Virus record (IMG/VR): IMGVR_UViG_2690316028_000007
DNA length: 21,361 nt
Direction: 5' to 3' (one strand)
Source: a virus
Lineage: Duplodnaviria > Heunggongvirae > Uroviricota > Caudoviricetes
Positions 711 through 3,735 of the stretch are shown here, piece after piece (the first letter of the stretch is position 1; the number at the start of each line of letters is the position of its first letter). The notes beneath the pieces are model-generated. The model was not told the DNA's origin. It saw nothing but the letters and a program-made list of their open reading frames with translations, and did no database searches. The position numbers and the translations under genes are program-made.

Positions 711-1424
711 ATGCCATACATATGTTCTATCATTTTGGTGTTGAACTCGTTTGGTGTCCGAATTGGTAAAGAAGATATTTTGTTTAAAAAAGGAAATGCT
801 GTCCTCATTGAATACAATTTAAAAGATCTTTTTTCGTCAATTACAGATCATCTAATGATCGTAGATGTTGAGGAGAAAACAGTTAATGATTTCTTTAAAA
901 ACTACACACTCTCACCTTTTTCTGTAAGAAGGTTTTATCCGTCATACTTGATAGTAGAATGTGAAGATTTTTCATTGTTAAAGAACTTGGTTGCATGCTT
1001 GAATTGTGATAGCAAAACCGTGGATGTAGTTAGAAATCAAATATCACTTGCATGTCTTGCTGTCTTATCTTCAGAGAAAATAGTGCAAAGTTTTTTGTTC
1101 GGAAGTCTTAATAGCTTAGGTTGTAAAGTTAAGGCTATTATTCACTCGGATATCTCAGCGTCATGGAGACTTTGTGATATATCTTCAAGATTATATATGA
1201 GCGAGAGTTTGTTAAAAAGAAAATTAAAAGACGAAGGATTATCGTTTAGTAAATTAATTCTTGAAGAACGAATGATGATGGCGCAAAGATTATTGATCTA
1301 CAGTAACCATACTGTCGGCAAGGTGGCGGGAATATGCGGGTATGACAATGCATCATATTTTGTAAGTGTTTTTAGAGGATATTTTGGTGTGCCTCCGCAC
1401 CAATATTTATCAAGATTTTCTTAG
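711..1424 (+). CDS. AraC/XylS-family transcriptional regulator, AppY/EnvY-like prophage moron
   Basis: C-terminal AraC-type HTH (GYDNASYFVSVFRGYFGVPPHQYL; SESLLKRKLKDEGLSF resembles AppY as I recall it). ATG at 711 is 6 nt after AGGTGG. Very AT-rich gene and flanks, own terminator downstream. Confidence 0.85.
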   Translation: MPYICSIILVLNSFGVRIGKEDILFKKGNAVLIEYNLKDLFSSITDHLMIVDVEEKTVNDFFKNYTLSPFSVRRFYPSYLIVECEDFSLLKNLVACLNCDSKTVDVVRNQISLACLAVLSSEKIVQSFLFGSLNSLGCKVKAIIHSDISASWRLCDISSRLYMSESLLKRKLKDEGLSFSKLILEERMMMAQRLLIYSNHTVGKVAGICGYDNASYFVSVFRGYFGVPPHQYLSRFS

Positions 1425-1492
1425 AAGATATGATGTGATGGCATTTTATAAAGTTATTTTTTGAAGTGTAAGATTATACGATATTTTTAGCT

Positions 1493-1524
1493 ACGCCAGA
1501 ATAATTGCTGGCGTTTTTCTTTTT
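1493..1524 (+). terminator. Rho-independent terminator downstream of the AraC-like gene (may also act as a tR'-like late-operon terminator)
   Basis: ACGCCAG / CTGGCGT 7-bp stem with 8-nt loop, followed by TTTTTCTTTTT. Confidence 0.6.
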
Positions 1525-1614
1525 GAATAGATGTTCGGGCCTTACGCTAATGTAACTTCTTTCCTTCTTCGAACCAAACCGTGTACACCATCCGTTATCT
1601 GCGGAGGTGAGGCT

Positions 1615-1830
1615 ATGAAATCCATGGATAAGTTAACAACGGGCATCGCCTACAGCACCTCTGCAGGCAGTGCTGGCTACTGGTTTTTACAGTTGCTCGA
1701 TAAAGTCACGCCCTCACAGTGGGCGGCAATAGGTGTATTGGGTAGTCTGGTATTTGGCATGCTGACGTATCTGACAAACCTTTATTTCAAGATTAAAGAA
1801 GACAGGCGTAAGGTTGCGAGAAGAGAGTAA
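1615..1830 (+). CDS. essQ: Class II holin (phage 21 S-type pinholin), 71 aa, with dual-start motif Met1-Lys-Ser-Met4
   Basis: [28 protein letters not shown]...[17 protein letters not shown] closely matches the phage 21 S / EssD-EssQ holin as I recall it. Strong SD GGAGGTGAGG upstream of ATG 1615. Second in-frame ATG at 1624. Confidence 0.9.
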
Positions 1831-1834
1831 TCCA

Positions 1835-2386
1835 ATGACTCAAGACTATGAACTGGTTGTGAAAGGAGTTCGCAATTTTGAGAATAAAGTGGCGGTAACT
1901 GTAGCCTTACGGGACAAAAAACACTTTGACGGTGAAATTTTTGACCTGGACATCTCGCTGGACCGTGTTGAAGGTGCCGCGCTGGAGTTTTATGAGGCAG
2001 CAGCCAGAAGGAGCATCAGACAGGTCTTCCTGGATGTTGCTGCCGGGTTATGTGAAGGGGATGAGCAGTCGTCGGAAAAGCGCCCCATAATTTTAGAGGC
2101 GCAGAATGTGTGGATAACCTACAAAGGAAAGCTACCGGGAAGAATTACTGGTTCTCTGAAGACGCCACCGACGGCATTGCGGTCAGAAAAAGATGATATT
2201 GAATCGCCCATTGAAAAACTGGAGGGCAGCGTCGCTGATCTGAATAAAAAATTGTCGGTGCTGATTCCTTCTGAAGATGAAAAAAAACGCCGCGATGAGC
2301 AGTTTGCGGCGTTTTACGATTATTGCATTGAAGTTACTCGCAGGAATTTTGTGAAGATTTTTGAGGAGGGTAAATCTCTTCAGTAA
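1835..2386 (+). CDS. Hypothetical 183-aa protein inserted between holin and endolysin (possibly YdfR/DUF1327-like; unverified)
   Basis: ATG at 1835 lies 5 nt after the holin stop, preceded by AAGAGAG. Charged, non-membrane protein. Same strand as the lysis genes. Confidence 0.6.
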   Translation: MTQDYELVVKGVRNFENKVAVTVALRDKKHFDGEIFDLDISLDRVEGAALEFYEAAARRSIRQVFLDVAAGLCEGDEQSSEKRPIILEAQNVWITYKGKLPGRITGSLKTPPTALRSEKDDIESPIEKLEGSVADLNKKLSVLIPSEDEKKRRDEQFAAFYDYCIEVTRRNFVKIFEEGKSLQ

Positions 2387-2594
2387 GCTTATTGGCGGAC
2401 GCTGCAATTAATTCAGGAAGGTCCGCAAGGTCATCTGTCAGTGGATATGATGAAAAATCGGCGGCAGTTCTGTTAAGAAGCGCTTTAACTAATTCCTTTT
2501 CCTTCTCCGGCAACAAGTTGATTAGAGCTACGACTGCTTGCCTGAGTGCGATTAAATCAGCAAAAGTTTGTTTTGGTAGATTTGTGTAATCCAT
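2334..2594 (-). CDS. Hypothetical acidic 86-aa protein, antisense to the late operon; 3' end overlaps the preceding ORF by 53 bp
   Basis: ATG at 2594-2592 on the minus strand, preceded by AGG-containing CACAGAGGCGACT. Protein-like composition (LPEKEKELVKALLNRTAADF). No family recognised. Confidence 0.4.
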   Translation of the reverse strand: MDYTNLPKQTFADLIALRQAVVALINLLPEKEKELVKALLNRTAADFSSYPLTDDLADLPELIAASANKLTEEIYPPQKSSQNSCE

Positions 2595-2707
2595 AGTCGC
2601 CTCTGTGTTTATCAGATTGACATCCTCCTCCCGCCAGTGCCCATCACTGGTGAGGTAAGATTTAACATATCCGGGGATTTGAAGCCGATAAATCCTGATA
2701 AATATCC

Positions 2708-3735
<1,028 letters not shown>

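Follow-up and report, generated by a model that had tools for sequence, protein, structure and literature searches.

Phage morons are autonomous promoter-gene-terminator units inserted in late operons, and one of them, bor of phage lambda, is transcribed in the direction opposite to that of the late genes and lies next to the lysis cassette. A gene on the opposite strand is also found in the operons of pore-forming colicins, where the immunity gene is located between the colicin and lysis genes. In Qin and Stx-type prophages, the holin gene (S) and the endolysin gene (R) are usually separated by ydfR, which encodes a DUF1327 protein; this layout is common, with the order essQ-ydfR-rrrQ and a YdfR of 103 amino acids (aa; b1555) in the Qin prophage of Escherichia coli K-12, and a holin, a YdfR of 114 aa and a lysozyme in O157 prophages. 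Here we describe the corresponding interval in the 21,361-nucleotide (nt) stretch of DNA from the IMG/VR virus record IMGVR_UViG_2690316028_000007 (Caudoviricetes), hereinafter the window, which represents a Qin-type lambdoid prophage of E. coli and is 99.8% identical to E. coli HS within positions 1500-3300. The interval contains two convergent open reading frames (ORFs), ORF183 on the strand of the lysis genes (1835-2386) and ORF86 on the opposite strand (2594-2334). The account that best fits the data, to which we assign a probability of roughly 0.6, is that ORF183 is the resident ydfR gene, that ORF86 is encoded by a reverse moron, and that the two overlap because the terminator and the 3' end of the moron are embedded in ydfR.

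The lysis cassette that surrounds the two ORFs is of the phage 21 type. A class II (phage 21 S type) holin similar to EssQ is encoded at 1615-1830 (plus strand; PF04971, E = 3.3e-34), a signal-arrest-release (SAR)-type phage lysozyme, the endolysin R, at 2708-3241 (plus strand; PF00959, E = 2.6e-24), and a DUF2514 gene (rzpQ) occupies the spanin position 3' of the lysozyme gene, with PF04971, PF00959 and PF10721 following each other in this order on one strand. In the annotation of E. coli HS, the first two of these genes are designated essQ and rrrQ. The holin stop and the R start are 877 base pairs (bp) apart, in agreement with the ~880 bp of the initial annotation, whose coordinates for the holin and both ORFs were all reproduced, as were the coupling of ORF183 to the holin gene (its ATG at 1835 lies 4 nt past the holin stop) and the convergent 3' overlap of 53 bp (2334-2386). 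R has no obvious Shine-Dalgarno sequence. The premise that R follows S directly does not hold for Qin and Stx-type prophages, and of the 'two extra ORFs' described on that premise, ORF183 is better counted as the resident ydfR, only its C-terminal 71 aa belonging, together with ORF86, to an inserted block. Neither product had been recognized as a lysis protein, and this remains the case: ORF183 is a YdfR/DUF1327 protein, and ORF86 belongs to phrog_2572.

The identification of ORF183, a reading frame that extends from the ATG at 1835 to the TAA at 2384-2386, is based on several lines of evidence. Residues 1-112 align with positions 1-92/93 of the PF07041 profile with a score of 143.4 bits, compared with the gathering cut-off of 25 (E = 2.6e-42); phrog_2091 matches 183 of the 183 positions; homologs of 183, 176, 171 and 211 aa carry the YdfR family name; and the frame is intact in 70 of the 74 IMG/VR loci that could be assessed. 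The gene lies between a class II holin and a lysozyme, as in the K-12 and O157 loci. Judging from domain content and position, ORF183 is a long version of ydfR, the late gene resident at this site, and not an extra gene. Its N-terminal region, which is encoded at 1835-2170 and is common to the K-12 and O157 YdfR proteins, consists of a core (aa 1-69) and a linker (aa 70-112). In the AlphaFold2 model, the core comprises three strands and a helix, with a predicted local distance difference test score (pLDDT) of 66-81, aa 70-125 are disordered, and two helices, at aa 126-141 and 147-181, are of low confidence (pLDDT ~50). K-12 YdfR and ORF183 are ~85% identical over aa 1-72, by a hand count on the alignment, and it is these residues of the K-12 protein that are reported to bind the N-terminal catalytic half of RNase E; K-12 YdfR also co-purifies RNA (PMC13232886, the only relevant report in our literature search).

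The remainder of the protein, the C-terminal extension (CE; aa 113-183, positions 2171-2386), is encoded within a block of ~490 bp that loci with a short YdfR lack. The CE varies in length by in-frame steps of -7, -12 and +28 aa, and its ratio of nonsynonymous to synonymous polymorphism (pN/pS) is 0.51, a value derived from only 12 variable sites. Generally, YdfR proteins are modular, with a common N-terminal part and alternative C-termini (72 to 296 aa). In E. coli HS, CFT073 and other genomes, the Prokaryotic Genome Annotation Pipeline (PGAP) designates ydfR a pseudogene, 'incomplete, missing C-terminus', of only 336 bp (L001 6336-6671; L009 2036-2371). This flag appears to be an artefact, with the modular C-terminus as its cause, given that the 183-aa frame is intact and proteins of identical length are called 'YdfR family' in other records.

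The extent of the inserted block became apparent from an alignment of the S-to-R interval from nine loci, in which window positions ~2173-2664 are an indel relative to the O157 short form (locus L006). The block holds the last 71 codons of ORF183, the whole of ORF86 and its upstream leader; compared with other long YdfR forms, the breakpoint is at ~2330, at the ORF86 stop codon. The O157 and K-12 loci have no such block, and phage 86, Perceval and others have different ORFs in its stead, a pattern of presence and absence at one site between collinear phages that is typical of a moron. The ORF183/ORF86 cassette is carried by the phage isolates PhiR63_1, PhiR12_1, PhiR5_1 and 2H10.

On comparative evidence, ORF86 (ATG at 2594-2592, stop at 2336-2334, minus strand) is a genuine protein gene. 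It encodes an acidic protein of 86 aa (isoelectric point 4.57, grand average of hydropathy -0.20) that matches phrog_2572 over 86 of 86 positions and is found in ~294 of 5426 complete E. coli genomes as well as in the phage isolates PhiR63_1, 2H10, PhiR12_1/2/5 and PhiR5_1. A profile search and an exhaustive phmmer search detected distant homologs (P0139, P0141, P0143 and P0145; 38-55% identity) in E. coli, Salmonella and metagenomes. In comparisons with these, the synonymous divergence (dS) is 0.9-1.4 and the ratio of nonsynonymous to synonymous divergence (dN/dS) is 0.30-0.41, which indicates purifying selection; the ORF86 frame alone is open in every homolog, the other frames having stops in the distant ones, and in-frame length variants exist. 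Conservation at the protein level had been named beforehand as the test on which ORF86 could fail, and the preserved frame together with the dN/dS values answers it; with the end-to-end profile matches, both ORFs are beyond what chance would produce. The arrangement is constant throughout the family, the E. coli a type, Salmonella (where the gene comes after Rz) and the c type all having a convergent overlap of identical phase that measures 53 or 59 bp. In the AlphaFold2 model, ORF86 is a three-helix protein (helices 8-26, 30-48 and 56-74; pLDDT 75) with a disordered tail that corresponds to the overlap part, and it has no transmembrane segment, signal peptide or known domain.

Searches against Pfam, NCBIfam and PADLOC yielded no significant match for ORF86 or the CE, and in particular no toxin, antitoxin or defence domain; ORF86 has no significant match among PDB sequences and folds either. 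The label DUF1823, which some phage records carry, was rejected as not significant (E = 0.13). A plus-strand ORF of 65 aa (2392-2589) was also dismissed as a real gene: it is a wobble-matched antisense frame with a TTG start in the window, and it contains stops in the distant homologs. A scan of genome contigs returned one E. coli locus only. Within IMG/VR, ORF86 is intact in 72 of 80 loci; its ATG is changed to ACG in seven (L041, L045, L060, L072, L078, L080 and L081), and one (L085) has a stop codon (Q19*). Four loci (L046, L053, L061 and L075) have 2 bp inserted at the ORF86 stop, with a frameshift at the end of ydfR as a further consequence.

The surrounding signals give ORF86 the appearance of a moron, a self-contained transcription unit in reverse orientation, with a predicted minus-strand transcript from ~2657 to ~2281. 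The ATG is preceded, at a distance of 5 nt, by the Shine-Dalgarno sequence GAGG (2603-2600), consistent with the AGG-ATG start described initially, and TAAGGA is present at the equivalent site in the distant homologs. The predicted 5' untranslated region contains a leader hairpin, CCAGUG-AUGGG-CACUGG (2650-2634; leader folding z = -2.6), that is common to loci with other cargo, namely, phage 86, Perceval and Stx1_14040. Further upstream lies a candidate sigma-70-type promoter (2692-2664), with the -35 hexamer TTTATC (2692-2687), a 17-nt spacer and the -10 hexamer TATGTT (2669-2664), from which transcription would start at ~2657. All genes of the ORF86 family have GGATATTTATCAGGATTTATCGG, 17 nt and TATGTT (TATTGT in Salmonella), and between E. 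coli and Salmonella the length of the spacer is fixed whereas its sequence varies. This promoter-like element is kept even where R is not adjacent, in Salmonella (after Rz) and in L102/L105. A -10-like hexamer follows TTTATC at 17-18 nt in 97 of 97 cargo-bearing sequences compared with 6 of 32 without a recognized cargo, in a tally of distinct IMG/VR sequences of this region that are not independent samples. The segment 2661-2705 also contains an imperfect inverted repeat (TATCAGGATT ... AATCCCCGGATA) that spans the putative -35 to -10, with a direct repeat, ATTTATC-N3-ATTTATC, just upstream of it; a regulator might bind to these repeats, or they might belong to the region where translation of R is initiated.

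At the other end of the unit, 18 nt past the ORF86 stop, a predicted intrinsic terminator (2315-2280, minus strand) consists of AAAACGCCGC, a 12-nt loop and GCGGCGUUUU, with a 10-bp stem and a run of 8 U in total; its folding energy is -14.6 kcal/mol (z = -3.7), and none of 200 shuffled sequences folds as well. Owing to the length of the loop, it escaped a generic scan. ORF86 is in this respect similar to morons, which carry their own terminator directly downstream of the gene. The hairpin is encoded within the ydfR codons for KKRRDEQFAAF, and both the Salmonella and the c type have a counterpart at the equivalent place. The c-type stem contains one pair that differs on both arms (A-U in place of G-C); in the late-strand frame, both substitutions are non-synonymous (R to H and A to V), an argument that what is conserved is the hairpin and not the peptide. 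On the plus strand, there is no canonical terminator from S to R, only a weak hairpin followed by U4 at 2280-2315, and late transcription modified by Q should, accordingly, traverse ORF86 in the antisense direction before it arrives at R, in line with the initial annotation. A second terminator-like hairpin of the minus strand (2074-2102; GCGCCUC, 9-nt loop, GGGGCGC, UUUU) lies within the conserved ydfR codons for EKRPIILEA; its equivalent lies shortly after the stops of two other reverse ORFs, F2 and F6 (see below), and may serve as their terminator.

The R start, the -35 hexamer, the spacer, the -10 hexamer and the leader hairpin together form a platform that in other phages precedes unrelated reverse ORFs, so that at least six families can be distinguished. 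Hand tallies of 120 matched stretches give the following picture. ORF86 itself represents F1 (86-93 aa, phrog_2572), which is found in ~20 of the 120 stretches, with a YdfR of 183 aa or its variants and an overlap of 53 or 59 bp. The commonest family is F2 (90 aa, phrog_2411; ~35 of 120), which accompanies a YdfR of 114 aa without an extension and overlaps it by 35 bp. F3 (104 aa, phrog_1853) is gp06 of the Stx2 phage 86 and is separated from a YdfR of 268 aa by a 9-bp gap; F4 (87 aa, phrog_18136; 4 of 120) overlaps a YdfR of 176 aa by 68 bp; F5 (98 aa, phrog_25324; 2 of 120) is found, across a 24-bp gap, next to a YdfR truncated to 72 aa; and F6 (79 aa, phrog_21218), from phage Perceval, overlaps a YdfR of 104 aa by 4 bp. 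In ~31 of the 120 stretches, there is no cargo. With the exception of F3, where the signal is ambiguous, the families have a hairpin with a U-rich tract just past the cargo stop; those of F1a, F4 and F5 are canonical, and those of F2 and F6 are weaker. BLASTP detects no similarity among ORF86, ORF79 and ORF104, and hhalign comparison of the cargo families, on shallow profiles, gave E-values of 0.07-0.55, that is, no detectable homology; an LLP-x-(V/I)K motif that appeared by eye to be common to the families was discarded for want of statistical support. Each cargo rewrites the C-terminus of ydfR differently, and all six families are annotated without a known function. Given at least five other unrelated families of small reverse ORFs on the same site and platform, the ydfR-R junction is, as far as can be gleaned from comparison of these loci, a recurrent cargo hot spot.

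Several individual loci are worth mentioning in this context. The 211-aa YdfR of PhiR5_1 (L004 2378-3013) contains a +28-aa insert that matches the C-extension accompanying the F4 cargo (KSTPTKNEVLAADEMKETIL...); apparently, part of one cassette was kept beside another, as repeated recombination at the site would produce. The last codons of K-12 YdfR, HHKYL* (L005 6055-6110), are encoded by a remnant of the reverse-promoter platform (CATCATAAATATCTATGA), which suggests that this ydfR arose by deletion from a longer c-type form, such as that of L103, with loss of the cargo and the -35/-10 element. With some types of cargo, for example, in Stx2 phage 86 (L011 ~2209-2336), the common leader hairpin (GCCAGCGGTAGGACACTGGCG) is followed immediately by UUUUU ahead of the cargo ORF and resembles a leader attenuator or terminator. 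In Stx1_14040 (L010 1618-2319), a minus-strand ORF of 233 aa extends over the final ~250 bp of a YdfR variant of 263 aa.

Taken together, these observations suggest the following scenario. A reverse cargo cassette of ~490 bp would have been spliced into the 3' part of ydfR, with its elements arranged on the minus strand in the order promoter beside the R start, leader hairpin, Shine-Dalgarno sequence, ORF86 and intrinsic terminator. Since the terminator and the last 17 codons of ORF86 fall inside the late-strand frame, ydfR gains a cassette-specific tail of 71 aa and stops 53 bp inside ORF86, and the overlap is, then, a structural consequence of how the cassette is built. In the lysogen and early in infection, ORF86 probably would be expressed from this promoter. 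Upon induction, the Q-modified polymerase coming from the late promoter would ignore the hairpin and read through S, ydfR, the antisense strand of ORF86, R and Rz, and late transcription would shut ORF86 off through collision and full-length antisense pairing. The ORF86 protein most likely binds another protein, presumably as a factor that benefits the lysogen or functions in exclusion or anti-defence. Of the three possibilities raised originally, an antisense-controlled moron fits best, given the conserved promoter-like element, the terminator on its own strand, the presence-absence pattern and the other reverse ORFs at the site; nothing was found in favour of a lysis regulator, and the pair is present in isolated phages (PhiR63_1, PhiR12_1, PhiR5_1 and 2H10).

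Several observations weigh against the moron account. The putative promoter, a deduction from sequence, has weak hexamers (3/6 and 4/6 matches), and a generic promoter scan did not call the 2664-2692 site. The -35 part also belongs to the immediate upstream region of R and could be conserved for the expression of R or as a recombination junction. The U-tracts of the terminator are weaker in the Salmonella and c types. The close variants of ORF86 are weakly informative, with 13-16 substitutions, a pN/pS of 0.4-0.7 and 9, 9 and 15 variable sites at codon positions 1, 2 and 3, respectively, and disruptions are slightly more frequent in ORF86 than in the adjacent genes (8 of 80 loci, compared with 1 of 78 for the lysozyme).

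The alternative that survives best, a minority view which we regard as live if rather improbable, is that ORF86 and the CE are a functional pair, in which the CE, free-standing or fused to DUF1327, is a late effector or toxin module and ORF86 is its constitutive neutralizer encoded on the opposite strand, protecting the lysogen from leaky late expression or excluding related superinfecting phages, with a topology like that of the pore-forming colicin operons. To examine this possibility, one can ask whether the two travel together, and indeed they do, across three sequence types and three fusion contexts: in each of the ORF86-family genes found, the last 53 or 59 bp are overlapped, with constant phase, by the end of a late-strand ORF, and this partner comes fused to DUF1327 (183 and 243 aa), as a free-standing ORF of 73 aa coupled to Rz in Salmonella, or as a 144-aa protein without DUF1327. 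However, the 3' end of ORF86 and its terminator lie inside the partner ORF, so that co-occurrence is forced by physical overlap; joint inheritance is confounded and, therefore, speaks neither for nor against a toxin/immunity relationship. The CE types resemble each other only in the segment on which the ORF86 terminator and tail impose a constraint: in BLASTP comparisons, types a and b are similar over aa 37-63 only (E = 2e-4), a and c give E = 0.25, and b and c show no match; accordingly, the CE was rejected as a conserved protein domain.

Some properties of the late-strand proteins do fit a functional partner. The c-type protein keeps a conserved region of ~110 aa with or without DUF1327, the in-frame variants of -7, -12 and +28 aa fall in the predicted helical part of the CE, the pN/pS of that part (0.51) is similar to that of the N domain (0.44), and the binding of the RNase E catalytic domain by the N domain of K-12 YdfR (PMC13232886) suggests an effector-like late protein. 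On the other side of the ledger, the compensatory stem change of the c type, which alters two CE residues, speaks for selection on the hairpin rather than on the peptide; divergence in the free-standing Salmonella ORF amounts to 24% over the first 25 codons and is mostly non-synonymous; the commonest cargo, F2, comes without any YdfR extension; the domain searches described above found neither a toxin nor an antitoxin or defence domain; both proteins are acidic; and the CE model is of low confidence. A search of the phage collection with the 73-aa Salmonella partner gave no match.

About equally tentative is a broader proposal, namely, that the interchangeable small reverse genes on the fixed platform (at least six families, 79-104 aa) are protein inhibitors expressed in the lysogen or early, with anti-defence, superinfection exclusion or immunity-like roles, and that ORF86 neutralizes, or is matched to, the tail of the RNase E-binding YdfR, so that the two would form a pair of a late effector and its neutralizer with a colicin-immunity-like topology.

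A less probable explanation is that the functional product is an RNA, a minus-strand antisense regulator that would damp leaky ydfR, S and R in the lysogen or tune lysis timing via cleavage of the RNA duplex by RNase III, the ORF being secondary. The unit is indeed fully antisense to the late transcript, its structured leader and terminator are conserved, the leader hairpin is followed by a U-run, as in an attenuator, in some related loci (phage 86), and the O157 short loci retain the platform without any ORF. What an RNA would not account for is the purifying selection on the ORF86 protein, which remains 40-55% identical while synonymous sites are saturated, or the succession of six unrelated ORF families of similar size in this slot, each with its own Shine-Dalgarno sequence and ATG; moreover, the terminator lies before S, so that antisense coverage of the holin gene is not expected. 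An Rfam search of positions 1400-3400 matched no family. Finally, the notion that nothing here is functional, ORF183 being a decayed ydfR pseudogene fused to junk and ORF86 a chance ORF in a cryptic prophage, draws on the PGAP calls in HS, CFT073 and others, the decayed state of the Qin-type element in the HS host, the start-codon changes in 7 of 80 loci and the stop in 1 of 80, and the antisense 65-aa ORF that is also open among close E. coli variants, but is largely refuted, as judged from these comparisons, by the intact 183-aa frame with its end-to-end phrog_2091 match, the YdfR family label given to the same 183-, 176- and 211-aa proteins in other PGAP records, the presence of the pair in phage isolates, and the distant ORF86 homologs that keep the frame with a dN/dS of ~0.35 while the antisense frame gains stops.

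The surroundings of the lysis cassette contain further inserted genes. Just upstream of the holin, at 702-1424, lies a gene for an AraC-family helix-turn-helix protein, and it is followed by a strong terminator-like hairpin on the plus strand (1493-1514), ~100 nt ahead of the holin start. In E. coli HS, the AraC-family gene and the genes for lipocalin and YbgA lie between Q and S, so that late transcription must cross several inserted genes and the 1493-1514 hairpin. In several strains (for example, NZ_CP091026 and NZ_AP027783), an IS2 or IS3 insertion splits the 1500-3300 region, the two pieces of which then span ~3.1 kb.

A moron in a late operon is a familiar kind of element, and in this sense, the ORF86 example itself is ordinary. 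The literature searches produced no description of the ORF86 cassette, the platform or the hot spot, and the specific families, the common platform and the site appear to be undescribed in the literature that was searched. If the moron account is correct, the 'two extra genes' can be resolved into the resident gene ydfR and a moron in reverse orientation, the 53-bp overlap is explained by the embedding of a terminator and a gene end in a coding sequence, and the PGAP pseudogene call on ydfR in HS and CFT073 becomes an annotation error. There would be, in addition, a recurrent insertion site with a common expression platform and at least six uncharacterized families of small proteins in prophages of E. 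coli, Shigella and Salmonella, Stx phages included, and it is in cargo of this kind that functions in lysogenic conversion, exclusion and anti-defence are usually found. The isolates PhiR63_1 and PhiR12_1, which carry the cassette, would provide a tractable experimental system.

Among the known systems with which this locus can be compared, the anti-CRISPR protein AcrIIC4, an 88-aa helical protein from a Haemophilus prophage, resembles ORF86 in size and all-helical character. The alignment of the two proteins is collinear and nearly full-length (~62 residues) and includes the motif LLP-x4-E-x-(V/I)K-x-L and an FSS motif. AcrIIC4 (7f7p, 8hns, 7msl and 7xvo) is the top specific match of ORF86, with E-values that are not significant (0.12-0.14 for the profile against PDB; Foldseek E = 4.5, TM-score 0.33), and type II-C CRISPR-Cas is not known from E. 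coli; the resemblance is a lead only. The likeness to the colicin operons is one of layout, an induced gene followed by a small reverse gene with its own, here putative, promoter and then by a lysis gene. Colicin-type immunity proteins are integral inner-membrane proteins, whereas the ORF86 model consists of three amphipathic helices with no hydrophobic span and no transmembrane helix, and ORF183 has no colicin domains.

Two further systems for comparison are YdfR and the morons themselves. ORF183 shares with the described YdfR proteins the N-terminal domain, the position after a class II holin, the strand and the tight coupling to the holin stop, and differs from the 103-aa K-12 and 114-aa O157 forms in having 183 aa, with a predicted helical tail of 71 aa that comes from the block carrying the reverse gene. 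ORF86 shares with the morons its small size, the reversed orientation within or next to lysis genes, a promoter-like element and a terminator of its own, and the presence-absence pattern between similar phages; by analogy with these, its expression from the prophage is plausible. In contrast to such morons as lambda bor, the product is neither a lipoprotein nor a membrane protein, and, rather than occupying an intergenic region, the unit has its terminator and 3' end inside the coding sequence of the neighbouring late gene. As a result, each cargo rewrites the C-terminus of ydfR, while the constant platform beside the R start serves unrelated cargo ORFs.

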